The notes: generated from the letters alone by a model not told the origin. Numbered from the stretch's first letter, positions 7,588-28,877 are shown. The stretch: DNA of 64,000 nucleotides from a virus (IMGVR_UViG_3300033069_001940:32001-96000); one strand, 5' to 3'. Translations and numbers: made by a program.

Positions 7588-7589
7588 TT

Positions 7590-8684
7590 ATGAAAATTTG
7601 TATCAAAGGTTTTTTCGGTGAGAATCACTCTTGGGCAGTATGTCATCGCGGTCTAGCTAATTCCTTAATTAAAAAAGGACATGATGTAGATATCTGTTCT
7701 ACAGATGGAAGTAGATTTCTTCCAAAAAATCTACTTCCATTTCTTAAAAAAGAAAATCAATTATATCATGATTATGATATGCAAATTAGTTATACTGCTA
7801 TGATTAATTTTCCGAGACATTTATCGCGCGGAACCAAAAATAGATTTGGTATTTGGAATTATGAATTTACGGTTTTGCCAAATAAACCACAACCATTTAA
7901 TAAATTTTATACATTTACTGATAAATTTCTGCCATCCTCGAATTTTTCAAAAGAAATTTTTTTAAAAAATAATATTCCAGAGAGTCATATGGAAGTGGTT
8001 TCTCATGGAGTTGATTTAGAACATTGGAATAATTTAGAGCCATTTAAATTAAATACAAATAAAAAAGTTAAAATATTAGCCAATATAGCACAGCCTCATA
8101 TAAGAAAAAATCTATCAGGATTACTAGACGCTTATGGTTTAGCATTTAATAAAAGCGATGATGTTTGTTTAGTGTTGAAGGTAGTTGATAAACCGCCTTC
8201 ATTTTCTTTTGAAGTTTCTTTTTCAGAAATATATAAAGACTTTAATAAAAAATTCCCTAATCATGCGGAATGCGAAGTTATTAAAGCTTTTATTCCAGAG
8301 ATAGGAAGTTTATATAAATCAACAGACATAGTATTTACTATGTCAAATTCTGAATGTTTTTATTTTCCTGGATTAGAAGCATTAGCAACTAATAATATAA
8401 ATGTTTGTCCTCGTTATGGTGGACAATTAGATTTTTTAAATGATGGCAATGCTTTGTTGATAAGTGGAAAAGACGTCAGAGCCCCAATTGCGGCTCAATA
8501 CTGGAATGGTTCGCCATACTCTTCTATGTTTGAGCCATCAGTTAGTGAAGCCGTAGATAAGTTAAGGTTCGCGGTATCAAATGTAAATGATTTAAAAAAT
8601 AAATTTTCAACAAATTCTAAAGAGATATTGAAAGAATATACTTGGGACAAAGTTACTGACAAAATTATTAGTTTGGCAAAATAA
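7590..8684 (+). CDS. Glycosyltransferase, GT4-like (GT-B)
   Basis: HGVD, RKN, SECFYFPGLEALA (EX7E-like), C-terminal YTWDKV. Confidence 0.85.
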   Translation: MKICIKGFFGENHSWAVCHRGLANSLIKKGHDVDICSTDGSRFLPKNLLPFLKKENQLYHDYDMQISYTAMINFPRHLSRGTKNRFGIWNYEFTVLPNKPQPFNKFYTFTDKFLPSSNFSKEIFLKNNIPESHMEVVSHGVDLEHWNNLEPFKLNTNKKVKILANIAQPHIRKNLSGLLDAYGLAFNKSDDVCLVLKVVDKPPSFSFEVSFSEIYKDFNKKFPNHAECEVIKAFIPEIGSLYKSTDIVFTMSNSECFYFPGLEALATNNINVCPRYGGQLDFLNDGNALLISGKDVRAPIAAQYWNGSPYSSMFEPSVSEAVDKLRFAVSNVNDLKNKFSTNSKEILKEYTWDKVTDKIISLAK

Positions 8685-9646
8685 TGTCATTTAAAATTTT
8701 TCCTTTTTCGGCCGGAATCCCTTGGGAAATAAATAAGGGAATCTTAAATCCTAAGATTCCATTTAATATTTTAAATAATGCTATTTCAGATAAAAATATT
8801 ATTGTTACTTGTTATGGTGGTTTGCTAGAATCTTATTTAAGTCTTTCTTATCTTGAAGCTTTTAATAAAATTTGGCCATCTAAAAAATTAACTTGGTCAG
8901 GCAACCCTATATTCAAAGATTTGATAGAAGCAAATGGTCTGTCTAAATTTAGCGAAGAAATACCTGGAGAGATTTTATCAAGATACCCTGTACCGTTATT
9001 TTTTGATAAATTAAATAACGCAATATTTAATCCATTAAATAATTACATAAAAATAAAACCTTATTATGGAGGCTTGAAATCATTCAATAATAATAATGTT
9101 TATTTAAAACAAATCTGGAATAATTCTCTTCTTGATTTTAAAAATTTTTATTTGCCTTTAATTAGAAATGATTTTGATAATAATAATTTTAAAAATCATT
9201 TATTATTATCAAAATTTGATTTTAATAAACCTTATATTATTATTATCCCTGATGATTTAAAATATTCAATTCATTCTCAAAAATGTTTGCCTTGGAATAT
9301 TCAACAGGTTAAATCTTTTGCTACAATTATATCACAATTAGGATATTCTACAGTTATCTTAACTGATAACGTTTATAAATATTATTCAAATAATTTGCCT
9401 TTTGTTTTTGAATTTAATTTTACTGCATTTTTTACTTTAATTAAGAATTCAAAAATGATTTTATCTAATGAAATAGATTTTTTATTAATTTCACAGTTAA
9501 TATCGGACAATTATTTGGTATCAAATAAGGTAAAAAAATATCTAGATTTTGGTAAAATTGATTATTTATTAAAAACAAAAAGTAAAATTAAAATATTCAA
9601 ATCAATGAATCAAAATGATGTTATTGGATTATTAAATAAAATATGA
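8684..9646 (+). CDS. Putative glycosyltransferase (GT9/heptosyltransferase-like, divergent)
   Basis: GGLLESYLSLSYLEA...WPSKKLTW and KPYIIIIP...KCLPW pattern; cluster context. Confidence 0.45.
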   Translation: MSFKIFPFSAGIPWEINKGILNPKIPFNILNNAISDKNIIVTCYGGLLESYLSLSYLEAFNKIWPSKKLTWSGNPIFKDLIEANGLSKFSEEIPGEILSRYPVPLFFDKLNNAIFNPLNNYIKIKPYYGGLKSFNNNNVYLKQIWNNSLLDFKNFYLPLIRNDFDNNNFKNHLLLSKFDFNKPYIIIIPDDLKYSIHSQKCLPWNIQQVKSFATIISQLGYSTVILTDNVYKYYSNNLPFVFEFNFTAFFTLIKNSKMILSNEIDFLLISQLISDNYLVSNKVKKYLDFGKIDYLLKTKSKIKIFKSMNQNDVIGLLNKI

Positions 9647-12252
9647 AATCATATATTACAGCATTTAAAAATTGTAGATTTACTAACTATGGATTATTAT
9701 TTGAATCTAAAACTGGAAGGTGTTTTTTAGATTTGTCTGGATATAGTAAAGTTAAGTTATGTTTTACCAGAATTTCTGGAGATGGCAAAATTATTCTTTG
9801 TTCTGACGGATTAGATAAAGAATATTCAATATTATCAAAATATAATTTTGAATTAGAGATTGAATTTAACGATCCAAAAATTCAAATACTTCGCCCTAAG
9901 AGTAGCCTTGGAGAGATTGTTTTAACTAATGTTATAGTACAGGATGGTATGTCAAAATGGAATGAAATTTTTAAAAAGATTGATTCTAAATATATTAGAG
10001 TTGTTAATGATAATTTATATGCCAATGACGGGGCTTATATAGCGCCTAAAGATCTTGTAGATAATTTAATAACAATTCCAGAAAAAAGTTTTGTTTATAA
10101 GGAAGATAAAATTGTTTTTAGTCAATGTCAAATAAGCGCTTTGTCTTTAAAAGACAAATTAGAGACGACAAAAGAAGAAAAATATACTGAAATATATAAT
10201 TCAAATCAAAGTCTTTCTTTTAAAAATTATAATTATAATAGTAAAAAACTTAAATATATTTATAGTTGCGGGGAGCATTTTTTATTATTAAAACCAATCT
10301 CCAATGCGAGTTTTTCTGTTTCTAATCTTGAAGAAAACACAAAATATTACATTAAAATTAGAGCAAAAAAATTAAATGGCAATGGTAGATTTCATTTTAA
10401 TATTTCTCCAAAAAATAATCTTGGATTTGCTGACTGTACAATAGACGCTGGTTCTAATTTTAATGAATTTAATCTAACTGTAGAGACTGGTTCTATAGAA
10501 TTTCCTGGCAATTTATTTAAAATAAATGTAGGTATGTTAGATGATGGTATAGGCGAAGTTTTAATATCTAACATAACAATTTATTGCGATTCAGAAAAAT
10601 GCAATATTGTAAATATACCAAAAAATATACCAAAAAATACATTAAATAAATTAAAAGAAAATGAAACAAAAGTTATTTTAAATAAAAATATTAATAACAA
10701 ATCAATAATATCTAAAAATCTCCCACAATTATTAAATCCATCCAAATTAAGACCATCTTTTGATTTAAAAGCAAATACAGATAGAAAATTTGTTATAGTT
10801 ATTCCAAGCTATAAAAATGAGAAATGGGTTGAAAAAAATATCACTTCAGCATTAAATCAAAATTATAATTTTTATAGAGTTATTTTTATAGATGATTGCT
10901 CCCCGGATAATACATTTGAAGTGGCTCAAAATGTTATTAAAAAATTAAATTCACAAATTAAAACAACTCTAATTAAGAATCAAGTTAGAAAAGGCGCTCT
11001 TTGCAATTTATATAATGCCATTCATAGTTGCGCTGATGACGAAATTATTGTTACTCTTGATGGCGATGATTGGCTTGCACATGATAATGTTTTAAGTTTT
11101 CTTAATACCGTTTATAAGTCTGGAGATACTTGGATGACTTATGGCCAATATAAAAATTGGCCAGATGGCGGCAAGGGTTTGTGTAAACAAATTCCAAAAC
11201 ATATTATTGATAGTAATGCTTATCGAGCGCATGAATGGTGCTCTTCTCATTTAAGAACATTTTATGCCTGGCTATTTAAATCAATTAAGTTAGAAGATTT
11301 TAGATATCAAGACCAAGAATTTATGAGTATGGCTTGGGATATGACTATGTGTTTCCCAATGTTAGAAATGTCTAAAAATCACCATAAATTCATTCCAGAT
11401 ATTTTGTATATTTATAATCTTGAAAATCCACTCAATGATCATAAGGTTAATAAAAAATTACAACAAGACACCGATGCATTTGTTAGAGCTAAAAATAAAT
11501 ATCAACCTAAATTACCAGAACAATATAATGGTAAAAAAACTAAAATTGGTCTTTTAATTATTGGGACTAATAAATATGTACAATTTTTAAATCCATTAAT
11601 TTCATCTGCCGATAGATATTTTTTTGTTGATGATAAGTATGATGTAACTTATTTTGTTTTTACCGATGGTAAAATTAATTTTGCTACAAACAGAAACGTT
11701 GAAGTAATACCTATTGAACATAAATCATTTCCGTTTGCGTCTATGGATAGATTTAAACATTTTTCAAATAATAAAGAAATTTTAAGTAAAATGGATTATC
11801 TTTATTATGTAGATGCGGATAGTTTGTTTGTTGATAGTATAGATGATGAAATTTTAGGTGATTTAGTTGGCGTTACTCATTGTGGTTATTACAAGCGCCA
11901 AGGAACCTTTGAGACAAATAAAAATTCTAAATTATACCATCCATTAGAAAAAACAAAAAATGCAGTTTATTATGGAGGAGGATTCTCTGGAGGTTTGTCT
12001 TCTAAATATTTAGAGTTAAGTCAGGAAGGTGCGAGACTGATCGAAGAAGACCTAAATAATAACATCATGCCCCTTTGGCATGATGAGACTTTTTTAAATT
12101 ATTACTTTATTAATAATCCTCCACAAATTACTCTTTCTCCAAGCTATCATTATCCACAAGATAATCCAGAAATATATAAAAAATGGAGCCCTGATAATTT
12201 TATTCCTAAAATATTGTTGCTTGAAAAAAATCACAGAGATATTAGGTCTTAA
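9643..12252 (+). CDS. Multidomain glycosyltransferase: N-terminal beta-sandwich region + GT2 + GT6 (ABO-family alpha-1,3-Gal/GalNAc transferase)
   Basis: GT2: VIVIPSYK, IDDCSPD, LDGDDW. GT6: IGLLIIGTNKY, YFVFTD, YVDADSLF, YYGGGFSGG, WHDETFLNYYF, LSPSY, LEKNH. Confidence 0.85.
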   Translation: MKSYITAFKNCRFTNYGLLFESKTGRCFLDLSGYSKVKLCFTRISGDGKIILCSDGLDKEYSILSKYNFELEIEFNDPKIQILRPKSSLGEIVLTNVIVQDGMSKWNEIFKKIDSKYIRVVNDNLYANDGAYIAPKDLVDNLITIPEKSFVYKEDKIVFSQCQISALSLKDKLETTKEEKYTEIYNSNQSLSFKNYNYNSKKLKYIYSCGEHFLLLKPISNASFSVSNLEENTKYYIKIRAKKLNGNGRFHFNISPKNNLGFADCTIDAGSNFNEFNLTVETGSIEFPGNLFKINVGMLDDGIGEVLISNITIYCDSEKCNIVNIPKNIPKNTLNKLKENETKVILNKNINNKSIISKNLPQLLNPSKLRPSFDLKANTDRKFVIVIPSYKNEKWVEKNITSALNQNYNFYRVIFIDDCSPDNTFEVAQNVIKKLNSQIKTTLIKNQVRKGALCNLYNAIHSCADDEIIVTLDGDDWLAHDNVLSFLNTVYKSGDTWMTYGQYKNWPDGGKGLCKQIPKHIIDSNAYRAHEWCSSHLRTFYAWLFKSIKLEDFRYQDQEFMSMAWDMTMCFPMLEMSKNHHKFIPDILYIYNLENPLNDHKVNKKLQQDTDAFVRAKNKYQPKLPEQYNGKKTKIGLLIIGTNKYVQFLNPLISSADRYFFVDDKYDVTYFVFTDGKINFATNRNVEVIPIEHKSFPFASMDRFKHFSNNKEILSKMDYLYYVDADSLFVDSIDDEILGDLVGVTHCGYYKRQGTFETNKNSKLYHPLEKTKNAVYYGGGFSGGLSSKYLELSQEGARLIEEDLNNNIMPLWHDETFLNYYFINNPPQITLSPSYHYPQDNPEIYKKWSPDNFIPKILLLEKNHRDIRS

Positions 12253-12972
12253 ATGTCAGTTATGTTTTCAAAATTGGGACAAATGGGGCGTCTAGGTAAT
12301 CAGTGCTTTCAGGCGGCTGCCGCCATAGCATTGGCAGATGAATATAGCGTCCCCTACTTATTACCTAAAACAGAATTACATGAAGCTTTTCCTAATTTAA
12401 AATATTGTAGTATTCCAAATAGCTCAATGGTATATAAAGAACCAGATTTTTCTTATAAAGAAATACCGTATGTTGAAAATATGGATTTATTAGGATATTT
12501 CCAATCTTGGAAATATTTTAATAATTGTAGAGGCTTAATAAATAATTTATTTAAATTTCCCAATGATGTGCCAGAATTAACAGGAGTTACTGCTATTCAT
12601 GTACGTCGTGGTGATTATGTAAAACTTGGTCAAGAATATTATGTCGATTTGTCTTTTACAGATTATTATGTCCAAGCAATAGGATATATTAAGTCTAGTA
12701 AATATTATGTTTTTTCAGATGATTTAGAATATTGTAAAAAAATGTTTAAAGGTAATGAATATGAATTTATATCATCTGGAAGTCCGTGGAAAGATTTACA
12801 GATGATAAGTTCTTGTGAAAATGTTATTATGGCCAATTCATCATTCTCTTGGTGGGGAGCTTATTTAAATAATAATCAAAATAAAATAGTAATAGCTCCT
12901 AAAAAATGGTTTGGTAGTAAATTGTCGCATAGTACAAATGATTTATATAACTCAGAATGGGTTATAATATAA
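12253..12972 (+). CDS. GT11 alpha-1,2-fucosyltransferase
   Basis: GRLGNQ, GYFQS, HVRRGDY, FSDD, ANSSFSWWGAYL, APKKWF. Confidence 0.92.
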   Translation: MSVMFSKLGQMGRLGNQCFQAAAAIALADEYSVPYLLPKTELHEAFPNLKYCSIPNSSMVYKEPDFSYKEIPYVENMDLLGYFQSWKYFNNCRGLINNLFKFPNDVPELTGVTAIHVRRGDYVKLGQEYYVDLSFTDYYVQAIGYIKSSKYYVFSDDLEYCKKMFKGNEYEFISSGSPWKDLQMISSCENVIMANSSFSWWGAYLNNNQNKIVIAPKKWFGSKLSHSTNDLYNSEWVII

Positions 12973-12981
12973 AGGTTTTTT

Positions 12982-13761
12982 ATGACAAGCTGGTGGAATA
13001 AAAATGTAGAATCAAGGCTTGATGACTTTAAGTCATGGGTTGGGGACCATAATCAGGCAAGTAAAGTTTATTGTAGAAAATATATTGTAGAAAAACAATA
13101 TAAAAGTATGGTAGATTGTGGTTGTGGGTTAGCCACAGATTTTTTTGCATTAAAAAATGATGGTTATAGCATTGCTTATACCGGCATAGACAGTTGTAAA
13201 TTTATAGTTGATACTAATAGGTCTAATGGAATAGACATGGTGGAGGCAGAATTAGAACAACCTTTACCAATAGAAGATAATAAATACGATGTAGCGTATT
13301 GTAGAGAAGTTCTTGAACATCTATCTTATTATGAAAATGCAATAAATGAATTTATAAGGATAGCTTCAAAAGAAGTAATAATTGTATGGTTTATAAAACC
13401 AATAGAAGAATGGCAGTGGGAAGAAGAGATAAAAGATAAAATTCTTAGAATGAAAAAAGAGCATTTTGAAGAACAATATAAAATAAATACAGAGAATGGA
13501 TTAACTGATCCTCTTCTAGTAAAAGATATAGATATAGTAATTTCCGATGATAATAAAGAAATCAATTATTGGAAGCCAGAAGATCTTTATCATAACAAAT
13601 ATGATAAAAATAAATTAGAGAATTTTATCTTAAGCAATCCAAAAGTAGAAAAAATATTTTGGAATGATGTGTGTGATGAACCATATCCAGTTCAATGTGA
13701 AACTGATAATAAGCCCAATTTCATAAAATCAGTATTACATATAGTTTTAAAGGAAAAATGA
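12982..13761 (+). CDS. Class I SAM-dependent methyltransferase
   Basis: VDCGCGLA, YTGID, YDVAYCREVLEHL. Confidence 0.8.
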   Translation: MTSWWNKNVESRLDDFKSWVGDHNQASKVYCRKYIVEKQYKSMVDCGCGLATDFFALKNDGYSIAYTGIDSCKFIVDTNRSNGIDMVEAELEQPLPIEDNKYDVAYCREVLEHLSYYENAINEFIRIASKEVIIVWFIKPIEEWQWEEEIKDKILRMKKEHFEEQYKINTENGLTDPLLVKDIDIVISDDNKEINYWKPEDLYHNKYDKNKLENFILSNPKVEKIFWNDVCDEPYPVQCETDNKPNFIKSVLHIVLKEK

Positions 13762-14837
13762 AATTTTTTAATATCGATCAACATGTTTCAGTCATAGCGG
13801 ATATCGCTCATATATTTAAAAATTTAGGTCATCAGGTTGATGACTGGTCATTGTCTGGACATCATTGGGTTTTAGGTAAACCAAAACCAAAAATTATGTT
13901 AAGCGACGGAAGTCAACTCATTGGATCTAATGTTTGCACTCAAGAAACATGTGATAAATTTTACGAACAATATAAAGATCAATTAGAACAATATGACGCT
14001 TTTATTGTTTGTTATCCAGTAGAATTTGCGCTCCTTTATGAAAAATGGAACAAACCAATTATAGTCGTAAATTGTGTTAGATATGAAGCGGATATGAATA
14101 TCCAAACATGGACACGAATAATTAAAAGTAGGCTAGATAATTTTTTAAAGCTTAAACAAAGTGAAGGTAAATTATATTATATTTGTAATAATAAAGGAGA
14201 CCAATATTATACAAAATATTTTACAGGCATAGATGGTGTGCATATTCCAAGTTTGTGCGAGTATACTAACGCAAAATATACTGGAACAAAAAATAAATAT
14301 ATAATACATGATAGAGCAGAGATTTCTGTTAATAATAATTTATGTATTAACTTAGATAATATAAGGGATAAAAATAGGAAATATACTTGGCAAGATTTAT
14401 ATGATTATAAAGGGGTTATACATGTACCTTATAATAATGGTTCAATGTCTATATTTGAACAATATACAGCAAATGTTCCAATGTTTTTCCCATCAAAACA
14501 ATATGCAAAAAAACTTATTAGTGAAAATAAAATGTTTTCTGATTTGACGTTTTATAAAATTAACAAAGTTAATGAGCCAGAAGATTATAATAATCCAAAT
14601 AGTTTAAGAAATCCAGAAATTTTAAATAAATGGATTGATACATCTGATATGTATGATGTTGACAATATGAAATATATTCAATATTTTGATTCGCTTGCTC
14701 ATTTAGAGCATTTATTAAAAACAGTTAATTTGAAAGAAATTAGTAGTAATATGTCGGCACATAATGTATTAAGAAAAGAATCTATATATAATAGCTGGAA
14801 TCAAATTATTACAAGTGTTAAAAGTAAAATTAATTAA
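13758..14837 (+). CDS. Hypothetical protein, probable GT-B glycosyltransferase
   Basis: YKGVIHVPY..SMSIFEQYTANVPMFFP motif; cluster context. Confidence 0.45.
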   Translation: MKFFNIDQHVSVIADIAHIFKNLGHQVDDWSLSGHHWVLGKPKPKIMLSDGSQLIGSNVCTQETCDKFYEQYKDQLEQYDAFIVCYPVEFALLYEKWNKPIIVVNCVRYEADMNIQTWTRIIKSRLDNFLKLKQSEGKLYYICNNKGDQYYTKYFTGIDGVHIPSLCEYTNAKYTGTKNKYIIHDRAEISVNNNLCINLDNIRDKNRKYTWQDLYDYKGVIHVPYNNGSMSIFEQYTANVPMFFPSKQYAKKLISENKMFSDLTFYKINKVNEPEDYNNPNSLRNPEILNKWIDTSDMYDVDNMKYIQYFDSLAHLEHLLKTVNLKEISSNMSAHNVLRKESIYNSWNQIITSVKSKIN

Positions 14838-14852
14838 ATAAATTAGGATAAT

Positions 14853-15638
14853 ATGAAGGTTGCTATTTTTTCATTCGCTGTTAATTTTCAATTTCCAATT
14901 GATATTATGAATAGACAATTCAAAAAATATTTAAAAGATGATTATGAATTAATCATTTTTAATGATGCTTCTGATAAACAAGAAGAAAAAAATATTAATG
15001 TTGTTACTTCATCTAATCAAATTAAATGCGTACGTGTGCCACAAGAAATACATAAAATATTTAGTCCATCAGTAGCATATGCTGAAACTTTAAATTGGGC
15101 CGTTCACAATTATGCAGCATCAAAAGATTTTGATATTATTGTATTAATGCATTCTGATATATTTCCAATATGTCAAATTTCTATGGTTGATATTTTAGGA
15201 GATTATACTGTGGCTAGCACTTCTGAGTTCCGTAAAATTGGCGAAACAGGAATAACATATTTATATCCAGCTTTTACAATTGTTAATATGAAATCTTTAA
15301 AACAATTAGGTGTTCATAAATTAGATTTTGGTTTGGAGCCAGGCGTAGACACTGGAGGTAAAACTAAAGATTTTATTATAAAATATCCAAATTTAGTTAA
15401 ATTATTACCTAATTATCAAGCTTCATATTTTTTACAAACATTAGATAATTCTGAAATATTAGCGAAATATTTTAAAGAAGATTTAGAAATTTCTAGAGCA
15501 CACGGATTAAGTTCTGGATGGATTGCAGAGGGTATGTACCATTATATGGCGGGGTCTAGATGGAATTTGAATGATAATCCATTATTTGCCGAAGGGCATA
15601 AAAAAAGAATGGATTTATTTTTAAAATATTTTTATTAA
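14853..15638 (+). CDS. Probable GT-A fold glycosyltransferase
   Basis: LIIFNDAS, VLMHSDIFP (DxD-like), DTGG, YHYMAGSRW. Confidence 0.5.
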   Translation: MKVAIFSFAVNFQFPIDIMNRQFKKYLKDDYELIIFNDASDKQEEKNINVVTSSNQIKCVRVPQEIHKIFSPSVAYAETLNWAVHNYAASKDFDIIVLMHSDIFPICQISMVDILGDYTVASTSEFRKIGETGITYLYPAFTIVNMKSLKQLGVHKLDFGLEPGVDTGGKTKDFIIKYPNLVKLLPNYQASYFLQTLDNSEILAKYFKEDLEISRAHGLSSGWIAEGMYHYMAGSRWNLNDNPLFAEGHKKRMDLFLKYFY

Positions 15639-15640
15639 AG

Positions 15641-16288
15641 GTGGATATGACATATTATTCTCAAGCGTGGCAAGATGAATTTGTAGCAAATATTCTAAAT
15701 TTTAAAAAGAATGGATATTATTTAGATATTGGTAGTACAGATGGAATTAATCAAAGCAATTCATATTTTTTTGAAAACGAACTTGGCTGGAAAGGAGTTT
15801 GTATTGAAAGGGGTGTTGGATATACAGAACACTACAAAAATAATAGGAATTGTGTTTTTTTAAATGAAGACGCGACACAAATTGATTATAAAAAGTTATT
15901 AGATAATTTATCTTATCCAAAGCAAATTGATTATTTATCAGTTGATATAGATGAAAATACCGTTGCTGCTTTAAATAAGCTTCCGTTAGAAGATTATAAA
16001 TTTAGTGTAATAACAATTGAGCATGACGCTTATCGTTTTAATGATTCTTTAAGATTAGAAGAAAGAAGAATATTAAGTTCATATGGTTATACCTTATTGT
16101 GCTCAGACGTTTTAGTTCCGCTCGGCTGTGGTATGGGTACAAATCTTCCATTTGAAGATTGGTGGGTGGATAATAAAGTTTTTAATATGGATAATACACA
16201 TAGGTTATGTTGCGATAAACAGTATCCAGATGATATAGTTAAAAAAGTAAAGCAAGAAAAAGTACAATGGCTAAAAGGAAATGAATGA
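15641..16288 (+). CDS. FkbM-family methyltransferase
   Basis: YSQAWQD, YLDIGSTDG..SNSYFFE..LGWKGVCIE, IDYLSVDID, ITIEH. GTG start. Confidence 0.8.
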   Translation: MDMTYYSQAWQDEFVANILNFKKNGYYLDIGSTDGINQSNSYFFENELGWKGVCIERGVGYTEHYKNNRNCVFLNEDATQIDYKKLLDNLSYPKQIDYLSVDIDENTVAALNKLPLEDYKFSVITIEHDAYRFNDSLRLEERRILSSYGYTLLCSDVLVPLGCGMGTNLPFEDWWVDNKVFNMDNTHRLCCDKQYPDDIVKKVKQEKVQWLKGNE

Positions 16289-17121
16289 AAAAAATTATAA
16301 GTTATTCTTTATATAATTCTATACCAAAAAATACAATTAATGCAATTATTAATTGTATGTTAGCCGAAAAAATTTATCCAGGTTGGGTGGTGAGATTTTA
16401 TTTAGATGATACTGTGCCAAAACCTATAGTTGATATATTGAGAACATTTTCTCATGTTGAGGTTGTAGAAATGCCGCGCGGAACAGGAAGCGAAAGAATG
16501 CTATGGAGATTTTTAAGTTGTAGTTCGGAAATAGAAACAGATTACCAATCTATTATGATTAGTCGTGATGCTGACTCTTATTTATCGGTTAGAGAAAAAG
16601 CTTGTGTAGACGCTTGGCTTGCTGGTAATAAGAATTTTCATAAAATTATTGGTCATTGTTATCACACAGACCCTAAGGTTAAAATTATGGGAGGTTTATG
16701 GGGCTGTAGAAATTCTATTTTATCAAAAATGAAAGAAGAAGTTGATAAGTTTATTAATGGAGGCGAGACATATGACCAAGGATTTTTAGCCAATGTGATT
16801 TACCCAAATGTACTGCATGATTTAATTTGTCATTATGACGACCCATCATTTAATAATAAAGGTCAAAGAGTTTATGGTCAGCCAGAAGAAAAAGGAAGTG
16901 CATTTCCAATTCCTCCATATAAAGAGTGGGATGAGCCTGTTGAGGGAATTTCTTGGCTTGAAGCTAATAAACTAAATGAATTTTATTGCGCTCATTGTAA
17001 TAAAAAACACAAAGAAGTTATTGGCGGTATTATTGAGCATATTCCATCGAGAGCGATGGAGGTCGTTCGAAAATATGTCGCAGAAAAAGGAATTTCTGTA
17101 GAAGGTTGCCCCGGTTTTTAA
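16285..17121 (+). CDS. Probable GT-A-like glycosyltransferase of the type seen in viral glycan clusters
   Basis: KIISYSLY, YPGWVVRFY, MLWRFL, SRDADS (DxD), IMGGLWG, DQGFL..IYP. Confidence 0.55.
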   Translation: MKKIISYSLYNSIPKNTINAIINCMLAEKIYPGWVVRFYLDDTVPKPIVDILRTFSHVEVVEMPRGTGSERMLWRFLSCSSEIETDYQSIMISRDADSYLSVREKACVDAWLAGNKNFHKIIGHCYHTDPKVKIMGGLWGCRNSILSKMKEEVDKFINGGETYDQGFLANVIYPNVLHDLICHYDDPSFNNKGQRVYGQPEEKGSAFPIPPYKEWDEPVEGISWLEANKLNEFYCAHCNKKHKEVIGGIIEHIPSRAMEVVRKYVAEKGISVEGCPGF

Positions 17122-17133
17122 TAAAGGATAAAA

Positions 17134-18033
17134 ATGATAAATAATGAAGTTGGTATATTATGTAACGAACAACATGGTGACATAGGTTTGTGTACATCTG
17201 TTTTAAAATATAAAGATCTATTATGGCCAGGTAAAAAAGTAATATGGTATTGTAATTTTGCTCCAGAGAAAGTTACATATATGGATATGTTAAAATTCAA
17301 TGATGCTATATCTGAAATTAGAGAATGGCCAAAAGTTTGGTTTAAAGATATAATGGATGAAAATTTTCAAATTAGACATGATAAAAAACATGAATTTGAA
17401 CAATTAAAAACACTTGATGTTGGATATTTTCCAGCACCTTGGGCAGCATTACCAAATAATTTATTTAATAACAAAAATTATTCAGAAATACCAAGACATA
17501 TATTCGGAGCAGACCCCTCTTGGGAGTGGCGGCCGTGTTTGGGATTTTCAAATGAAGAGAGAGAGATGGTTAAAGATTTTTCTTCAAAACTACCTCATTC
17601 AAAAACCGTAATGCTTGAAACTCAATTAAGATCTGCTGGTAATTTTAATCTAAGCGAAGATATTATAAGAAATACCATGAGCCTTTGTAGAAAAAAATGG
17701 GGGAAATGTAATTTTATTTTTGCTAGCAAAATAGATCATACTAAATTTGTTGATGACGCTGGCGTAGTTTCAGCCGCGGATTTCACTGTAAGGCAAACTT
17801 CATTAATACATGACCAATCAGATTTATTTATATCTGTATGTAGTGGGATTACTGTTGCTTCAAGTTGCTGGGGTTCGAAGCCGGTTCCGAGAGTCGAGAT
17901 GTGTAGTGTAAATACAAGTTATAAAAATTTATGTTATGGACCGACCATTAGTGTTTTTTGTGAAAATTGGACAGAAGAACAATTAAAAAAAGGTTCTGAA
18001 GATGCAATTATTCAGATTTTAAATAAATTATAG
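17134..18033 (+). CDS. Putative GT9-like glycosyltransferase
   Basis: HGDIGLCTSVL...WPGKKVIW; SDLFISVCSG. Confidence 0.5.
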   Translation: MINNEVGILCNEQHGDIGLCTSVLKYKDLLWPGKKVIWYCNFAPEKVTYMDMLKFNDAISEIREWPKVWFKDIMDENFQIRHDKKHEFEQLKTLDVGYFPAPWAALPNNLFNNKNYSEIPRHIFGADPSWEWRPCLGFSNEEREMVKDFSSKLPHSKTVMLETQLRSAGNFNLSEDIIRNTMSLCRKKWGKCNFIFASKIDHTKFVDDAGVVSAADFTVRQTSLIHDQSDLFISVCSGITVASSCWGSKPVPRVEMCSVNTSYKNLCYGPTISVFCENWTEEQLKKGSEDAIIQILNKL

Positions 18034-18043
18034 CAGGGGAAAT

Positions 18044-19261
18044 ATGGAAGAATTATTTACATTAGGTGAGTTTTATTTATGTGACTTTCTTAAAAGCGAG
18101 GAATCTTATAGAGGAAGCAAACATGAATTAAAGTTAGTTTTAACTGATGATGGTAATGTTAGACTAGATAAACCTGCGCCATTAAATCAAATGTTTGGTC
18201 GTTACTTTTATAGGAGCGGAACAAATCAAACAATGAGAGATGAATTAAAAAATATTGTAAATTCAATTCTTCATGTGTCAAAATTAAAAGAAAATGATCT
18301 TTGGGTGGATATTGCTTCAAATGATTTAACTTTATTAGGATTTGTTCCAAATAATTTAATTAGAATTGGAATAGACCCTTGTGAAGATTCTTATTTAACC
18401 GACGCCTCTCAGAAAACTAATTTGGTTATTCAAGATTATTTTACAGCAGATGTTTTTAAAAAATGTATTTTTGGAAAACAAAAAGCAAAAGTAATAACTT
18501 GTATAGCTATGTTTTATGATTTAATTGAACCAGATAAATTCCTTCAAGATGTTAATGAGGTCTTAGATGATTCTGGTTTATTTGTAGTACAATTATCTTA
18601 TACCCCTTTGATGCTTAAGCAATTAGCGTTTGATAATATACTTGGAGAACATTACTATTATTATTCGCTTTTTAATTTAAAAGCTTTATTTGAAAAAAAT
18701 GGATTTAAGATTTTAGATTGCCAGTTGAATGATACGAATGGCGGTTCATTTAGAGTATATGCTTCAAAAATAAATTCTAATGAGTCTCATTTTGCTACTC
18801 AGCCGTATCGTGATGTAGCTGAATTTAGAGTTAAATCAATTTTGGAGTATGAAAAATCTTTAAAATTAGATAAAAAAGAAACATGGTTGGAATTTAAAGA
18901 AAATATTGATAAGCTTAAAGCTAAAGTTTTATCATTTTTAAATGAAAAAAAATCTCAAGGTAAAACTATATATGGCTATGCGGCTAGTACAAAATCAGCA
19001 ACTTTACTTCAATATTTTGGAATAGGGTCAGATTTAATCACATCTATTGCAGATAGGAATCCTTTAAAATGGGGTACGACAATGCCTGGAATAAATATTC
19101 CAATTGTTTCTGAAGATGAAGTAAGGAGCGCTAAACCAGATTATTTATTAATTTTAAGCTGGCATTTTGCCAAAGAATTTATTGAAAGGGAAAAGGATAT
19201 GTTACTTAATGGTACAAAATTTATTATTCCGTGCCCTCAATTTGAAATAATTTCAATATGA
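18044..19261 (+). CDS. NDP-sugar C-methyltransferase (TcaB9/NovU-like)
   Basis: YFYRSG, VDIASND, IGIDP, FDNILGEHYYYYS, NGGSFRV, YGYAASTK..TLLQY, PDYLLILSWHF. Confidence 0.85.
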   Translation: MEELFTLGEFYLCDFLKSEESYRGSKHELKLVLTDDGNVRLDKPAPLNQMFGRYFYRSGTNQTMRDELKNIVNSILHVSKLKENDLWVDIASNDLTLLGFVPNNLIRIGIDPCEDSYLTDASQKTNLVIQDYFTADVFKKCIFGKQKAKVITCIAMFYDLIEPDKFLQDVNEVLDDSGLFVVQLSYTPLMLKQLAFDNILGEHYYYYSLFNLKALFEKNGFKILDCQLNDTNGGSFRVYASKINSNESHFATQPYRDVAEFRVKSILEYEKSLKLDKKETWLEFKENIDKLKAKVLSFLNEKKSQGKTIYGYAASTKSATLLQYFGIGSDLITSIADRNPLKWGTTMPGINIPIVSEDEVRSAKPDYLLILSWHFAKEFIEREKDMLLNGTKFIIPCPQFEIISI

Positions 19262-20049
19262 ATTTAGTTATAGGCAATACCTCACAGCTTTCATATTATT
19301 TCCCAAACGATTATATTAAAATATCATCAAGAAATATAAATTTAGATTATATTAAAAATAACAAATGGAATGCTGTATATATCTGTTTTGCAGAACAAAG
19401 AATATATGATTCTAATATAGATTATATTACACCTAATTATATTTATACTTTACAAATAATAAATTCTATTTTGGAATGCACTGATAAAATAGTTTGTTAT
19501 ACTAGTTGTGAATTATGGAATAATTTATCTGGTTATATAGATTTAGATACCGCCCCTAATTTTGATATAAATAACGAATATACTATTTCAAAATTTTTAT
19601 TGCTTAATAAAATTAAGCAATTAAGAAAAATTAACGAGAGATATAATAAAGTAATATTTATCCATCCATTCTATTTTAATTCTGCTTATAGATCAAATTA
19701 TTTTTTGTTTGGAAAAATTTTTGATTCAATTCTTAATAAAAAAGTTATAGATGTTGGTAATTTAAATTTTTATCGAGATATAGTTCATGCACAATATATT
19801 GTAGATAAAAGTATTGAAGCAAACAGCGATCTTGTGGTTGGGGCGGGAAAGTTATTTAATGTCAAAGATTTTATTGTAGATCTTTATAATTATTTTGATA
19901 TGGATTTTGAAAATTATACAAAAATTAATAATTTTTCTTCTTCTGGAAAAGAAAAATTAATTATGGCAAAAGTAAATATTAATTGGGATTATACATATCA
20001 AAATTTATTAAACGACACAGTGAATGATTTAAAAAAAGTTAAAGGATAG
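19258..20049 (+). CDS. Divergent NDP-sugar epimerase/reductase (extended SDR)
   Basis: YTSCELW, YTISK (YxxxK), RDIVHA; the Rossmann glycine motif is degenerate. Confidence 0.55.
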   Translation: MNLVIGNTSQLSYYFPNDYIKISSRNINLDYIKNNKWNAVYICFAEQRIYDSNIDYITPNYIYTLQIINSILECTDKIVCYTSCELWNNLSGYIDLDTAPNFDINNEYTISKFLLLNKIKQLRKINERYNKVIFIHPFYFNSAYRSNYFLFGKIFDSILNKKVIDVGNLNFYRDIVHAQYIVDKSIEANSDLVVGAGKLFNVKDFIVDLYNYFDMDFENYTKINNFSSSGKEKLIMAKVNINWDYTYQNLLNDTVNDLKKVKG

Positions 20050-20050
20050 T

Positions 20051-20308
20051 ATGGAAGTAACTTTAGGAAATCTTATAGACCAGCTTTCGGTTGTTAATTT
20101 AAGAATCTGGCATGCCGAAGATAAAAAACGAGATAAGAGCGCTACTGATAAAGAGATAGCTGACGCCTGCCGTTTAACCAATATATGTAATAGCCAAAGA
20201 AATGATTTAATTGAAGAGATAGATAAAAAAATAAATCATATGGTTCAAACTGGTGAACTTCAAAAACTTTATGGACAGGGCTCAACAAAGATGTATGGTG
20301 GAAAATGA
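20051..20308 (+). CDS. Small helical protein (DUF4254-like, common in glycan clusters)
   Basis: [21 protein letters not shown]...[12 protein letters not shown]. Confidence 0.55.
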
Positions 20309-21309
20309 CTCAAACGGCAATAATTACTGGAATTACTGGACAGACTGGCTCATATCTTGCAGACGTTCTTTTGGAAAAAGGTTACAAAGTATATGGTTTA
20401 AAAAGAAGAGCTTCAACAATTAATACTGAGCGTATAGATCATTTATATGTTGATCCTCATAAAGAAAGTAATTTAGAATTGGTTTATGGTGATTTGGCCG
20501 ATTATTCATCTATTGTGAGTATAGTAGCTGATGTTAAGCCGGATATGTTTTTTAATATGGCCGCACAATCGCATGTTCGAGTTTCTTTTGATATTCCTGA
20601 ATATACAATGGATGTTACTGGCAATGGTGTAATGCGTTGTTTAGAAGCTATAAGAAAATATAGTCCAAATACAAGATTTTTACAAGCCTCGTCTTCGGAA
20701 TTATTTGGCAGTTCGCCCCCACCACAAAATGAACAAACTAGATTTCAACCAAGGTCTCCGTATGCTGTAGCTAAAGCGGCCGGATATTATGCTGCTGTGA
20801 ATTATCGAGAGGCATATAATTTATTTGCTTGTAATACAATATGTTTCAATCATGAATCTCCACGTCGCGCTGAAACATTTGTTACAAGAAAAATAACAAA
20901 AGCGGCCTCCAGAATAAAATTAGGTTTACAAGACTTTTTATGGCTTGGTAATTTAGAATCTAAAAGAGATTGGGGTCATGCTAAAGATTACGCTAAGGCT
21001 ATGTATTTAGTTATTAATTCCGACCATCCAGATGATTATGTTGTTTCAACTGGTCAAATGCATTCTGTTAAAGAATTTGTTCAAATAGTTTTTGATAAAC
21101 TAGATTTAGATTGGACTAAATATGTTAAATTTGATCCAAAATATTTAAGACCATCTGAGGTAGATGCGTTGTTGGGTGATTCTTCTAAATTAAGAAATAC
21201 ATTAGGTTGGAAACCAGAGTATGATTTTAATATGCTTGTTGATGAAATGATTGAAAGAGATATGCAAGATGCTAAAAAAGAACAGTATATATTAAATTCA
21301 AAATTATAG
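20305..21309 (+). CDS. gmd: GDP-mannose 4,6-dehydratase
   Basis: [71 protein letters not shown]. Confidence 0.96.
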
Positions 21310-21366
21310 CTGATAACTGTCGAGTAGCTTCATTTTAAATTTCATCTCCTGTGTTGGAGAATAAAA

Positions 21367-22299
21367 ATGAGCATTAAGGTATTAGTGACCGGCGCCGCTG
21401 GAATGATAGGGTCGCATTTATCAGATAAATTAATCGATCTAGGTTTCGAGGTTATCGGATTGGATAATCTTTCGACCGGCAAAATAGAAAATTTAAATAA
21501 AAAAATGATTCTTGATAATCATTTTTATCAAGATAGTATTACTAATAAATATCTTGTTAAAGAGTTATTTGAAAAATACAAATTTAATTATGTATTTCAT
21601 TGTGCCGCTGAAATTGATTTAAGAAAAAGTTTTAAAGATCCGATTGGAAGCGCAGAGACTAATATTTTAGGTTCATTAAATTTGATTGAGCAATCTGTAA
21701 AACATCAATCTAAATTTATTTTTTCTTCTACTGGTGGCGCAATATATACATCATCTGATGAATTGCGTCTTCCATTTACAGAATGGAGAGATGCTTTACC
21801 ATCAAGTCCATATGGGTTAACTAAGTTAACAATAGAAAATTATTTAAAGATTTTTCATGAACATGATAATTTATCTTATGTAGCATTAAGATATTCTAAT
21901 GTTTATGGAACAAGACAAGCATTCGGAGAATGTGGTGTTTTGTCTATATTTATTAATAAACTTCTCAAATCTGAAAGTATTAATGTTTTTGGTGATGGTA
22001 ATCAAATAAGAGACTACATATATGTTAGTGACGTAGTGGATGCCAACATTAAAGCTATGAATTTATCTGGTGTTTATAATGTTGGAACAGGAGAAGGGAC
22101 TTCAGTTAATACAATTATTTTACATTTGAATAAATATTTTGGAATGATTGATGTTAATTATTTAGATGCTATTCCTGGAGAAATGAGATATAGTGTTTTA
22201 AATTGTGATAAATTAAAACGTCAAGGATGGTCTCCGTCTTTTAACCTAGACCAAGGTATAGCACAAGTTCTATCAAAAAGTGAGAAGTTAAATGTCTAA
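21367..22299 (+). CDS. NAD-dependent NDP-sugar epimerase (GalE/UDP-Glc(NAc) 4-epimerase-like)
   Basis: TGAAGMIGSHL, DNLSTG, SSTGGAIY, SPYGLTK, LRYSNVYG, GDGNQIRDYIYV. Confidence 0.85.
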   Translation: MSIKVLVTGAAGMIGSHLSDKLIDLGFEVIGLDNLSTGKIENLNKKMILDNHFYQDSITNKYLVKELFEKYKFNYVFHCAAEIDLRKSFKDPIGSAETNILGSLNLIEQSVKHQSKFIFSSTGGAIYTSSDELRLPFTEWRDALPSSPYGLTKLTIENYLKIFHEHDNLSYVALRYSNVYGTRQAFGECGVLSIFINKLLKSESINVFGDGNQIRDYIYVSDVVDANIKAMNLSGVYNVGTGEGTSVNTIILHLNKYFGMIDVNYLDAIPGEMRYSVLNCDKLKRQGWSPSFNLDQGIAQVLSKSEKLNV

Positions 22300-23185
22300 A
22301 AAAATATTATGTGTTGGAAGTTGCGGATTCATTCTTTCTAATTTTGTTAGAAAAGTAATTAAAGATAAATTAGATTATCAAGTTTGTAGTATAGATAAAA
22401 TATCTTCATCAAAAGATATTCATAATGTCTATAGTAATAGAAATCATAATTTCTATATTGGAAATACATTAGATAAACATTTTCTTAAAACTGTTTTTGA
22501 AATTGAAAAGCCTGATATTGTTATTCAAGGCTCTTTAACTAACCAAGAAGAATTCCTTCTTTCCAATGTAATCGGAACTGATAATTTGTGTCAAGTTTGT
22601 GAGGAATATGGCTCTAAATTATATTTATTAAGTTCAGATATAGTTTATGGCGTTTCTGAAGATGAGGAGCTAAGCCATAAAGAAACGGACTCTTGTGTTA
22701 TTTATAGTAAATATATGACATCACTAATTTCATCAGAGGATTTAGTGCAACATAGTGGGGGAACAGTTTTAAGACTATCGAATGCTTATGGTCCAAGATC
22801 CAAAAAACAAATCATCACTGATCTTATTCGTTTTCATTTAAAAAATGAAACTCCATATATTTGGAATGTTGGCTATGATTTTACTCATGTAGAAGACGTA
22901 ATATCTGCAATCCTTGTGATTATAGAATCAGGAAAAGAAAAAATATATAACGTATCATCTTCTCATCAATTTTCTGAGAAAGAAGTGTATAATGAAATTG
23001 CTAAATTAATTGAGTTAAAAGACCCAATAATAAATCAGAATACAAATTCGGTATCTACTCTTTTTAGAAGTAGCGATAATTCAAAACTAAGAGCTTTGGG
23101 CTGGAAGACTCAGCATACGTTGCAAGGTTGGTTGCCGTCGGTTGTTCAGTGGTATCTTAATAATCAATGGTTTTTAAAAGAATGA
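22292..23185 (+). CDS. RmlB-like (dTDP-glucose 4,6-dehydratase-like) SDR with degenerate catalytic motifs
   Basis: VGSCGFILSNFV, SNVIGT, SSDIVYG, RLSNAYGP, VQWYLNNQ; YxxxK is replaced by YMTSL. Confidence 0.6.
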   Translation: MSKKILCVGSCGFILSNFVRKVIKDKLDYQVCSIDKISSSKDIHNVYSNRNHNFYIGNTLDKHFLKTVFEIEKPDIVIQGSLTNQEEFLLSNVIGTDNLCQVCEEYGSKLYLLSSDIVYGVSEDEELSHKETDSCVIYSKYMTSLISSEDLVQHSGGTVLRLSNAYGPRSKKQIITDLIRFHLKNETPYIWNVGYDFTHVEDVISAILVIIESGKEKIYNVSSSHQFSEKEVYNEIAKLIELKDPIINQNTNSVSTLFRSSDNSKLRALGWKTQHTLQGWLPSVVQWYLNNQWFLKE

Positions 23186-24357
23186 AAGACTTAACTATTA
23201 TCTCTAATGTTATGATGAGCGACGGAATTGGCCGTCAAGGAATTGGTATGTTAAAATGTGTACATCAAGATCTTGATGTTAACATATTTCCTATCGGCTC
23301 ACCTAATTATAAAGATGTCCCGCCAGAATTATTAAATACTGTATCAAAGCCATTTGATGGTTTTGGTAAGGTGGCTTTTTGGACCTATATTTTAGGTTTA
23401 AATGAACAAATGATTTCTGTTCATGCTAGGCTTAATTCAAATATTAAAATTGCTTATACTATGTTTGAATCAGATGCAATTCCTAATCTGTGGGTAAAAA
23501 TTTTAAATACTTATTATGACTTAGCAGTTGTACCAGACCCTTGGCTAGTTAAAGTATATAAAAAATGCGGAGTTAATATTCCTATTTTTGTAGTACCATT
23601 AGGCATTTTAATAGAAGATTTATTAGAATACCCATTAAAATCAAAACCAAATGATATTTTTACATTTGGGATGTCTGCCGGTTTCTGGCAAAGAAAAAAT
23701 CATATTAAGTTATTAAATGCTTTTGCTCAAGAATTTGGCAATAATGATAAATTTAGACTCAAGCTTCATGGTAGATTTGGGCCTTATAAAAATAATGTCC
23801 AAAAGGAAGTGGTTGGCCTGCATCTAAAAAATGTAGAGTTAATAGATGTTCCATTATCTAATCAACAATATAATGATTTTTTAAAAAGCTTGGACTGCTA
23901 TGTTTTCCCCTCACAAGGCGAGGGCTTCTCAGTGACTCCACGAGAAGCTATAGCTTTAGGTCTGCCTTGCATTCTTACTAATAATACAGTTCACAAAACG
24001 ATTTGTGATTCCGGGTTTGTGTTACCGATTGAGGCTAATCAAAAACAACCAGCTATATATGAAGTTTTTAATAATTCACAACTTGGACATTTCTATGATT
24101 GTTCTGTAGAAGATCTTCGCAAGGCTATGGTTGAAGTTTACAATAATTACGAAAAATATATTAAAAATTCAACAGAAGGTCGAGAGTGGGTAAAACAATA
24201 TTTATGGAGTAATCTTAAGCCCATTTATCTTAATCTCTTTAAACCAAAAGAGATCATTTTGGGAAATGAAAATTTAGTAACAGATTCTGTACTACAAACA
24301 AATAACAAAAAATTGTATAAGAAATATAATGATAGTAACTTGGTCAATCATAAATAA
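23182..24357 (+). CDS. Glycosyltransferase, GT4-like
   Basis: YTMFESD, RKN, DCYVFPSQGEGFSVTPREAIALGLP. Start placed at the ATGA overlap. Confidence 0.88.
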   Translation: MKDLTIISNVMMSDGIGRQGIGMLKCVHQDLDVNIFPIGSPNYKDVPPELLNTVSKPFDGFGKVAFWTYILGLNEQMISVHARLNSNIKIAYTMFESDAIPNLWVKILNTYYDLAVVPDPWLVKVYKKCGVNIPIFVVPLGILIEDLLEYPLKSKPNDIFTFGMSAGFWQRKNHIKLLNAFAQEFGNNDKFRLKLHGRFGPYKNNVQKEVVGLHLKNVELIDVPLSNQQYNDFLKSLDCYVFPSQGEGFSVTPREAIALGLPCILTNNTVHKTICDSGFVLPIEANQKQPAIYEVFNNSQLGHFYDCSVEDLRKAMVEVYNNYEKYIKNSTEGREWVKQYLWSNLKPIYLNLFKPKEIILGNENLVTDSVLQTNNKKLYKKYNDSNLVNHK

Positions 24358-25111
24358 TGAAGAAGATTATCTAAAAGATGTTATAGAACATCATCTACCC
24401 TGGGTAGATGCTATGTATTTTTTAGACACTGGCTCAACTGATTCTAGTTTAGATATTTTAAAACAATATAAATCAGATAAATTATATTTTGAAGAATATC
24501 ATACCAAATATATTCCTCAATATGAACTACCTTGGGAGAAAATGGTTAATCCTTTTCCAGAGGTAGAAGTAAGAAATTTTGCCATCAAAAGATGCCAGGA
24601 GATATTTAAACCAGATTGGTTAATTCAATTGGATGGAGATGAAATATTTTTACCATCACTCAAGTCTGTAATAGAAAAATCTGGTAAAGGAATATCTATA
24701 ACGCATAGTACAATCAATCCTGTTTGCGAATTAAAACATCATAATCCAGAGCGTCGAGGAGGCTATGTTTTATATGATCCTCATGCCAGAATCTGGAAAT
24801 CTGGGCATAAAATTGAATATATTAATAATCCTAATATAAAAACAGGCCAATTTCATTGCATTCCGGTTTTTAGACCTGATGTTGGACATAGAGGTCATAT
24901 ATTTAATCATCCATTAAATCTAGTAACAAATTTACCAATTCATTTTCATTTACACTGGATGTATGGTAAAAAATTACAAATGTTTTATGCTAAGCAGGGA
25001 ATAACAGAACGCAAAGAAATTGTTAAAGGGCAACCTATTAATACTTTTAGTAATATGGTTCCTCAGGTTTTTTGGGATAAAAGAGAGCAATGGATTCAGG
25101 AAATTAAATGA
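24329..25111 (+). CDS. Glycosyltransferase, GT2-like
   Basis: NNEEDYL, LDTGSTD, RNFAI, WLIQLDGDE. Confidence 0.82.
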   Translation: MIVTWSIINNEEDYLKDVIEHHLPWVDAMYFLDTGSTDSSLDILKQYKSDKLYFEEYHTKYIPQYELPWEKMVNPFPEVEVRNFAIKRCQEIFKPDWLIQLDGDEIFLPSLKSVIEKSGKGISITHSTINPVCELKHHNPERRGGYVLYDPHARIWKSGHKIEYINNPNIKTGQFHCIPVFRPDVGHRGHIFNHPLNLVTNLPIHFHLHWMYGKKLQMFYAKQGITERKEIVKGQPINTFSNMVPQVFWDKREQWIQEIK

Positions 25112-26436: not shown

Positions 26437-26459
26437 TTTAAAATCATAGATTGATTTAT

Positions 26460-26493
26460 AAATATGCCGTAGTAAACTACGGCATATTTTTTT
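26460..26493 (+). terminator. Intrinsic terminator after the structural/glycan/tubulin unit
   Basis: AATATGCCGTAG-TAAA-CTACGGCATATT followed by a T tract. Confidence 0.75.
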
Positions 26494-26501
26494 ATTTTCA
26501 T

Positions 26502-28875: not shown

Positions 28876-28877
28876 AT

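Follow-up and report, generated by a model that had tools for sequence, protein, structure and literature searches.

A lineage-variable glycan-synthesis island as the best explanation for an 18-gene cluster at a fixed genome position in a huge phage

Introduction

Multi-gene glycan clusters in large phages, the glycosylation of virions by phages, and variable clusters held at a fixed slot in the Megavirinae have all been published. The cyanophage P-SSM2 carries a cluster of 15 genes and S-SCSM2R has 22 such genes, including 13 for glycosyltransferases (GTs) (PMC7824862, PMC12801897). In the Megavirinae, clade-specific clusters of 6-33 genes at a conserved slot serve the synthesis of fibril glycans (Notaro et al. 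2022, PMC10117803), and in mycobacteriophages it is GTs of the phage that glycosylate the virion (Freeman et al. 2023, cited in both PMC12619734 and PMC10955285). Here, we describe a cluster of 18 open reading frames (ORFs) at positions 7590-25111 of a 64,000-nucleotide stretch of viral DNA (the window), which spans bases 32001-96000 of a linear virus record in IMG/VR that is 125,608 bases long (IMGVR_UViG_3300033069_001940). The best explanation of the cluster is a lineage-variable glycan-synthesis island of 5-35 genes at one fixed place in the 430-480-kb genomes of a phage clade. The 18 genes of the window are one allele of this island, and not the largest.

Like the "lipopolysaccharide" (LPS) clusters of the jumbo cyanophages P-SSM2, S-SCSM1 and S-SCSM2R, which comprise 15-22 clustered genes, the island lies in a large myovirus genome, combines several GT families (GT11 among them) with methyltransferases and one to four epimerases or dehydratases that are short-chain dehydrogenases/reductases (SDRs), varies in content and has a putative target (PMC7824862, PMC12801897). 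It differs from those clusters in belonging to another phage lineage and in occupying a fixed slot after fibre genes, where it is framed by a core GT4 gene and an RmlB-like gene, an arrangement that we have not seen described for cyanophages. With the Megavirinae it has in common virus-encoded sugar-nucleotide pathways and GTs, which lie mostly between two conserved genes with no lipid-carrier export step (PMC10117803). The Megavirinae, however, are giant viruses of eukaryotes for which fibril glycans have been demonstrated by chemical means, whereas the present system is known from its genes alone and is related to theirs only at the family level. The resemblance to the mycobacteriophage system is that virion proteins would receive their sugars in the cytoplasm from soluble phage GTs; as that work is cited in the papers named above, there are two GTs per phage there, in other phages and hosts, against about ten in 18 genes here. 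An earlier note on the window had considered the cluster far more elaborate than known phage systems. In scale this was wrong, given the 15 genes of P-SSM2, the 22 of S-SCSM2R and the up to 35 ORFs in relatives of the present phage. In the open-access literature, we found no variable island that sits at a conserved slot after fibre genes, with a core GT4 and a dehydratase as its frame, in an uncultured huge-phage clade.

Results and Discussion

About 70 related loci were identified in IMG/VR by a pattern scan, and three of the relatives have a completeness rating of 100%, at 435-459 kb. Homologues of the core GT4 numbered more than 848, typically about 50% identical over their full length, and many are on contigs of 200-480 kb. 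The order of the locus is two giant genes, the core GT4, a variable cassette, an RmlB-like dehydratase and a tubulin gene. In each of the 61 loci that extend far enough upstream, both giants have homologues 5' of GT4, and the synteny with structural genes of related huge phages that the earlier note had proposed to check is indeed found; no ORF lies between giants and GT4 in 21 loci and a single one does so in 33. On the right side, tubulin is located within 10 kb 3' of GT4 in 48 loci, with a median distance of 5.8 kb between the two gene starts (range 4.6-8.4 kb), and in 46 of them a homologue of the window SDR that begins at 22292 stands no more than three ORFs upstream of tubulin (genes of the window are named here by their first position). 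The locus is a variable cluster in a conserved slot of the Megavirinae type, reaching from giant 2 and GT4 (61/61 loci) to the RmlB-like gene and tubulin (46/48 loci).

The cassette within this slot is what changes. A "basic" form comprises GT4, a GT2, often an Fpg/Nei DNA glycosylase, a 330-residue anchored protein, a second GT2 and an SDR. The expanded form, found in the subclade of the window, extends over 15-27 kb and 17-35 ORFs in a frame of GT4, the 8684 family, a multidomain GT like that at 9643, a variable centre, GDP-mannose 4,6-dehydratase (Gmd), and SDRs like those at 21367 and 22292. The cassette ORFs that have no homologue in the window (107) include 31 GT2 proteins, other GT families and about seven methyltransferases, together with DegT aminotransferases, nucleotidyltransferases, a UDP-GlcNAc 2-epimerase, a carbamoyltransferase, WbqC, a KdsA-like enzyme, a formyltransferase and a CMP-sugar synthetase. 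When the window is compared with a collinear relative (G004), identity is 36-51% from GT4 through 12982, 47-57% for the giants and tubulin, and 60-72% from 13758 through Gmd (13758-21309; L087/L088), a mosaic that suggests either exchange of modules or unequal constraint. A cluster of paralogous GTs with one to four SDRs, polymorphic among relatives and carried by a phage genome of >200 kb, has the features of the jumbo-phage surface-glycan clusters of Iyer et al. (2021). Whatever the glycan is attached to, the fixed slot with its core GT4 and swappable modules provides a simple typing marker for these uncultured phages.

Several proteins of the relatives' loci are worth recording in their own right. 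The 330-residue protein of the basic cassette (L007:11789-12775, L008:15100-16152) combines a single membrane anchor at its N-terminus with a coiled coil and a C-terminal part rich in Gly and beta structure; it matched nothing in Pfam or PDB, and neither this fragment nor the expanded cassettes contain it. The interval between giant 2 and GT4 (L008:8493-9272; L010:9406-9993; L052:6345-9971; L033:7768-9948) can hold an FGE-sulfatase-like protein, a 2H/Acb1-like protein, a 1208-residue protein with ten Big_3_5 Ig-like domains, or a 726-residue protein with an SGNH/GDSL esterase domain. In one basic cassette, an Fpg/Nei DNA glycosylase (L008:14319-15155) and a LAGLIDADG endonuclease (L008:13600-14319, - strand) are inserted. 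The Fpg homologue of the present phage is elsewhere, at 84227-84796 in window coordinates, which is past the window end.

The phage origin of the contig is clear. The earlier note had asked whether it could be a cellular chromosome, and this origin is ruled out by the phage genes on the contig and by the complete virus relatives. The contig is that of a huge phage: it encodes a tail sheath, Baseplate_J, tubulin, UvsW, DnaB and ribonucleotide reductase, and its relatives are complete virus records of 435-459 kb. CheckV rates the source record 29% complete, which translates into a whole genome of about 430 kb. The G+C content is about 30% throughout, with no compositional break at the glycan cluster, and the + strand carries nearly all genes of the window. 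Upstream of the window are the tail sheath (phrog_2839), a weak match to a tail-tube initiator and the 1081-residue Baseplate_J protein, followed by a giant of 2223 residues and a second of 965 residues; 3' of the cluster are a TubZ/PhuZ-like tubulin, UvsW, DnaB and ribonucleotide reductase. No close relative was found in INPHARED, and Streptomyces phages gave a weak GT4 match in an uninformative gene context. The "moraphage" lineage (PMC12619734) is probably another group, as its genomes reach only 307 kb versus 435-480 kb here. Host inference through Gmd indicated no host, the best bacterial matches being at most 59% identical and spread over many phyla; phage copies of Gmd are 57-71% identical to that of the window.

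Within the window, the cluster consists of 18 co-directional ORFs on the + strand, which abut or overlap at spacings of -29 to +15 nucleotides, with a single exception of 57 nucleotides before 21367. The first ATG lies 2 nucleotides past the TAA of giant 2 and has no ribosome-binding site. This layout is as the earlier note described it, and its counts (9-10 GT-like genes, 3 methyltransferases and 4 SDR enzymes acting on nucleotide sugars) are about right by profile, fold and BLAST evidence. We count eight firm GT domains and three leads, three methyltransferases, Gmd, two further SDRs and one divergent SDR-like ORF. One of the four SDRs, that at 22292, has lost the catalytic Glu and Lys found in its relatives.

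The two giants are of particular interest as possible acceptors. Giant 1 is a 2223-residue protein at the fibre position whose gene directly follows that of the Baseplate_J protein and starts 1984 nucleotides before the window; its C-terminal 1561 residues are encoded at 1-4687 (+ strand) and contain Laminin_G_3 (ConA-like) domains and a six-fold array of the tripeptide Asp-Gly-Tyr (DGY) at residues 1187-1211. Giant 2 (4690-7587, + strand; 965 residues), also at the fibre position, has a dockerin-like repeat and three DGY, and its homologues in relatives are 36-52% identical. That both are structural is indicated by their location, where tail fibres follow baseplate wedge genes, and by their domains, which is positional and domain evidence and not proof. 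The tripeptide is strongly enriched in both families, with 305 occurrences against 22.5 expected in giant-1 homologues (13.6-fold) and 282 against 13.5 in giant-2 homologues (20.9-fold). Permuted or similar tripeptides used as controls reached 0.4-2.7-fold, and DGY itself 1.15-fold in 770 further proteins encoded at these loci. Of this genome's own structural proteins, those upstream of the cluster contain 19 DGY against 2.35 expected. The residues flanking DGY are not conserved. Such an excess fits a modification tag.

Our preferred reading, to which we give a probability of roughly 45%, is cytoplasmic glycosylation of the tail-fibre giants. Four observations argue for it: the synteny is invariant, GT4 is kept while the content downstream turns over, no export route is encoded (see below), and DGY is in excess in the giants. 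The GTs are phage-encoded and soluble, as in the known cases of phage virion glycosylation. The mycobacteriophage and Megavirinae systems are precedents, and the GT at 16285 is similar in fold to the PBCV-1 capsid GT and to glycogenin, an enzyme that glucosylates its own tyrosine. Soluble enzymes in the infected cytoplasm would make activated sugars, with Gmd providing GDP-4-keto-6-deoxymannose and the C-methyltransferase and SDR reductases or epimerases leading to fucose-type and branched 6-deoxy sugars. From these, about ten soluble GTs would build a methylated and fucosylated oligosaccharide straight onto proteins of the phage, the likeliest acceptors being the two giant fibre-position proteins encoded immediately upstream. 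The core GT4 might add the first sugar and the variable enzymes extend it, and we infer that the glycan would serve in surface masking or in adhesion. Should the particle carry the glycan, this virion-glycosylation system would exceed by far all others in bacteriophages, and phages, like giant viruses and bacteria, would have a dedicated locus for varying the sugars of their surface coat, with bearing on host recognition, on evasion of defence or grazers, and on the stability of huge particles. On any reading, the GT4 and a DGY-bearing fibre fragment are a defined pair for bench work.

A bolder form of this idea can be put forward only tentatively, as we hold it to be somewhat doubtful. The island may be a phage "serotype locus", a hypervariable set of 5-35 genes, anchored by the core GT4 and the RmlB-like dehydratase, that builds lineage-specific cytoplasmic glycans on DGY-tagged tail-fibre giants, possibly by tyrosine O-glycosylation, and may thus be the phage counterpart of giant-virus fibril glycosylation.

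A promoter-like motif of the extended -10 type, TGATATA(G/A), bears on how the island is expressed. Of 62 distinct loci (L007-L074), 24 have it at a fixed -16/-15 relative to the GT4 ATG (e.g. at about 9985 in both L008 and L010), and 29 (47%) have it within 60 nucleotides upstream of GT4. Tubulin has TGATATA at about -28, with AAGGAG 3' of it, in 15 of 41 loci; before the giants, SDRs, UvsW and other genes the motif is found in only 0-4%. The fixed motif, together with the lack of a ribosome-binding site, suggests that GT4 of these relatives is translated from a leaderless mRNA. At GT4 and tubulin of the window itself the motif is absent. In this genome, a sigma-70 promoter scan of 6000-25999 did no better than on shuffled sequence, terminator-like matches in the same interval fall within genes, a k-mer search of upstream regions returned ribosome-binding-site words alone, and the GTTATATA motif is not enriched.

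A number of points weigh against glycosylation of the giants. Since TGATATA precedes GT4 and tubulin and not the tail genes, the argument from a tail operon is weakened; in many relatives the island appears to be its own transcription unit, with a promoter type common to the tubulin gene, which is not a virion gene. The cluster abuts tubulin and the replication genes as tightly on its other side, where the ATG of tubulin overlaps the stop codon of the last GT (ATGA), a junction as close as that at giant 2. The stretch from giant 2 to tubulin is also a plastic zone in relatives, with inserts that include a LAGLIDADG endonuclease, Fpg, a 2H/Acb1-like phosphoesterase, an FGE-sulfatase-like protein and extra fibre-like genes, so the synteny may reflect this plasticity alone. 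The giants have no Ser/Thr-rich tracts, and DGY could equally be a structural turn. The evidence for a glycoprotein is indirect, and attachment to virion proteins is putative, resting on the circumstantial evidence of synteny and DGY. Finally, the enzyme set mirrors that for O-antigen units, soluble GTs normally use lipid-linked acceptors, and carriers and exporters of the host could do the rest.

This last point leads to remodelling of the host envelope, in which soluble phage GTs would extend undecaprenyl-linked intermediates of the host at the inner membrane face, and host flippases, ligases and exporters would place the glycan on LPS, capsule or wall polymers. Superinfection would be blocked, or progeny kept from re-adsorbing to debris, and lytic huge phages would be rewriting host serotypes on a large scale. 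We regard this as less likely than glycosylation of the giants. The gene content speaks for it: GT6, GT11 and Gmd here, and DegT, WbqC, the KdsA-like enzyme, CMP-sugar synthetase and formyltransferase in relatives, are typical of O-antigen and capsule loci, and the cassette varies among relatives as serotype loci do. The conserved single-pass membrane protein of the basic cassette and the promoter motif common to tubulin, which suggests expression apart from the tail genes, are in favour as well, and host envelopes are the standard target assigned to comparable clusters of 15-22 genes in jumbo cyanophages (PMC7824862, PMC12801897).

The membrane steps of such a pathway are what the phages lack. 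We found no polytopic membrane protein among 545 cassette ORFs (194 from expanded and 351 from basic cassettes), and a hydropathy scan of the 18 ORFs revealed no convincing transmembrane segment, in agreement with the earlier note. Profiles were run on this fragment (G000) and on the three complete relatives (G002, G006 and G007), with bacterial controls that were positive. In all four, there was no match to the initiating transferases (PF02397, PF00953), Wzx (PF01943), Wzy or ligase (PF04932), ABC-2 (PF01061), PMT_2 of the GT-C type (PF13231) or LCP (PF03816), and the claim that Wzx/Wzy, an ABC exporter and an initiating transferase are missing was thus well founded. Because the seven families are absent from three complete relatives, the lack of membrane parts holds genome-wide. 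Judged as a Wzx/Wzy- or ABC-dependent locus, the island has the pathway genes and several GTs, but neither the initiating transferase nor a flippase, polymerase or exporter. E. coli O86-type O-antigen loci, which specify blood-group-like epitopes, have GT4, GT6, GT11 and Gmd in one locus together with Wzx and Wzy, and depend on WecA. The island likewise brings GT4, GT6, GT11 and Gmd together, but Wzx, Wzy and WecA are absent here and in the complete relatives. Since these families are absent, every membrane step would have to be borrowed from the host if the envelope were the target, and flippases usually prefer their own unit. Envelope remodelling also leaves the strictly conserved position of GT4 after the fibre genes and the DGY tag unexplained.

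The tight junction of the island with tubulin and the replication genes on its right side could instead point to some other acceptor, such as non-virion proteins of phage or host, a free or lipid-bound cytoplasmic oligosaccharide, a small-molecule glycoside or phage DNA. We consider this group of acceptors improbable. Several orphan enzymes of the cluster have no assignment, which leaves room for it, and phage GTs are able to attach several sugars to DNA (Pyle et al. 2024, cited in PMC12619734). About ten GTs with fucose and C-methyl-sugar chemistry, however, go far beyond known DNA glycans, and the cluster has no polyketide or peptide scaffold genes. A ThyA-family gene is needed for hydroxymethyl pyrimidines. 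PF00303 finds such a gene in G000 and G002 but not in G006 and G007, two complete genomes with the largest cassettes (20-27 kb); a hydroxymethyl-pyrimidine gene that travels with the GTs was therefore not found, and glycosylation of DNA is unlikely.

The enzymes of the cluster can be considered individually. The core GT4 (7590-8684), the conserved left anchor of the island, is a retaining GT-B enzyme by its match to phrog_2170 (E 5.8e-25) and by GT4-type matches in PDB; its Pfam score is slightly below the cut-off, and 30 homologues share the EX7E pair E255/E263 without exception. The next gene (8684-9646), a frame member of the expanded cassette with nine distinct homologues of 33-42% identity, encodes a GT-B protein nearest to GT9 heptosyltransferases. 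Its structure model (mean predicted local distance difference test score, pLDDT, 87) matched WaaF, WaaC and the protein heptosyltransferase TibC in Foldseek at E 5e-8 to 6e-5 and a template-modelling score of about 0.5. This model and that of 16285 were built from alignments of natural homologues. An 869-residue GT2-GT6 fusion follows (9643-12252; PF00535, 65.6 bits; PF03414, 129.4 bits against a cut-off of 25), with DGDD in the GT2 part and DAD at residues 724-726 in the GT6 part, which is a stand-alone gene of 250-257 residues in L016, L057 and L069. The N-terminal 380 residues of the fusion (9643-10782) resemble two beta-sandwich modules, with a weak fn3 match, and could bind the acceptor or carbohydrate. 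A GT11-type fucosyltransferase (12253-12972) is identified by PF01531 (91.2 bits), a full-length match to phrog_2644 (E 4e-46) and an HVRRGD motif.

The centre of the cluster is richer in orphans. A putative glycosyltransferase at 13758-14837, for which the nearest ESM Atlas clusters are auto-named glycosyltransferase, is a lead that had no match in Pfam, PHROG or PDB; its homologue in G004 is 72% identical. The orphan family at 14853-15638, with 92 homologues that have no Pfam domain, is a GT lead by sequence motifs only, and a profile search of PDB with it was empty. The protein at 16285-17121, from a family of 182 homologues for which Pfam has no model, is a GT-A glycosyltransferase by its structure model (pLDDT 94.6), which Foldseek matched to glycogenin, Skp1 galactosyltransferase and the PBCV-1 capsid GT A64R at E of about 2-9e-5, and its DxD (D95, D97) is invariant. 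The orphan at 17134-18033 is a GT9-like lead, in that PF01075 is present in 13% of the members of a nearby ESM Atlas cluster; hhalign of 17134 against the 8684 family was negative and among the orphan families uninformative. Single-sequence and profile searches of PDB and Pfam returned nothing for 8684, 13758, 14853, 16285 and the N-terminal 380 residues of 9643. At the right end of the cluster are a second GT4 (23167-24357; PF00534, 46.5 bits) and a GT2-like protein of the Glyco_tranf_2_4 family (24329-25111; PF13704, 35.1 bits, cut-off 27.5).

The three methyltransferases are a class I S-adenosylmethionine-dependent enzyme (12982-13761; PF08241, E 2.4e-10), an FkbM-type enzyme (15641-16288; PF05050, 26.3 bits, cut-off 22.7) and a nucleoside-diphosphate-hexose C-methyltransferase (18044-19261; PF08484, E 4.2e-48). 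A divergent SDR-like protein (19258-20049), with a BLASTP E of 1.4e-5 to Gmd and no Pfam match, and an 85-residue DUF4254 protein (20051-20308; PF14063, E 4e-11), which adjoins Gmd in G004 too, precede Gmd itself (20305-21309; TIGR01472, 452.8 bits, equivalog cut-off 415). The extended SDR at 21367-22299, an epimerase or reductase (PF01370, E 3e-54), is under every equivalog cut-off and is found 3' of Gmd in relatives too.

The right anchor of the island (22292-23185) is a degenerate copy of the core RmlB-like 4,6-dehydratase. A TDEVYG-type motif (in the form STDEVYG) is present in the tubulin-adjacent SDR of 43 of 54 relatives, and YxxxK is kept in most of the aligned relatives. The window copy has SSDIVYG and KYMTSL in these places, with loss of the TDE Glu and the YxxxK Lys and a deletion of six residues, and so does not have the catalytic motifs (T-D-E, YxxxK) of the RmlB type. 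The dehydratase of this phage therefore looks catalytically inactive, and Gmd may now be the source of the 4-keto-6-deoxy intermediate. Because the tubulin-adjacent SDRs of relatives carry RmlB-type hallmarks, the ancestral core of the island would have been GT4 plus a 4,6-dehydratase. The copy of this dehydratase in G008 is also degenerate.

The conserved right-hand neighbour of the island, outside the glycan system, is the TubZ/PhuZ-like tubulin (25108-26436, + strand; PF00091, PF22453). Three ORFs of 367-431 residues at 26451-30173, 3' of tubulin, have no Pfam family. A GT-B-like gene outside the cluster (47664-48599; Glyco_trans_1_3, 27.5 bits, just over the cut-off) adjoins a small protein with two hydrophobic segments.

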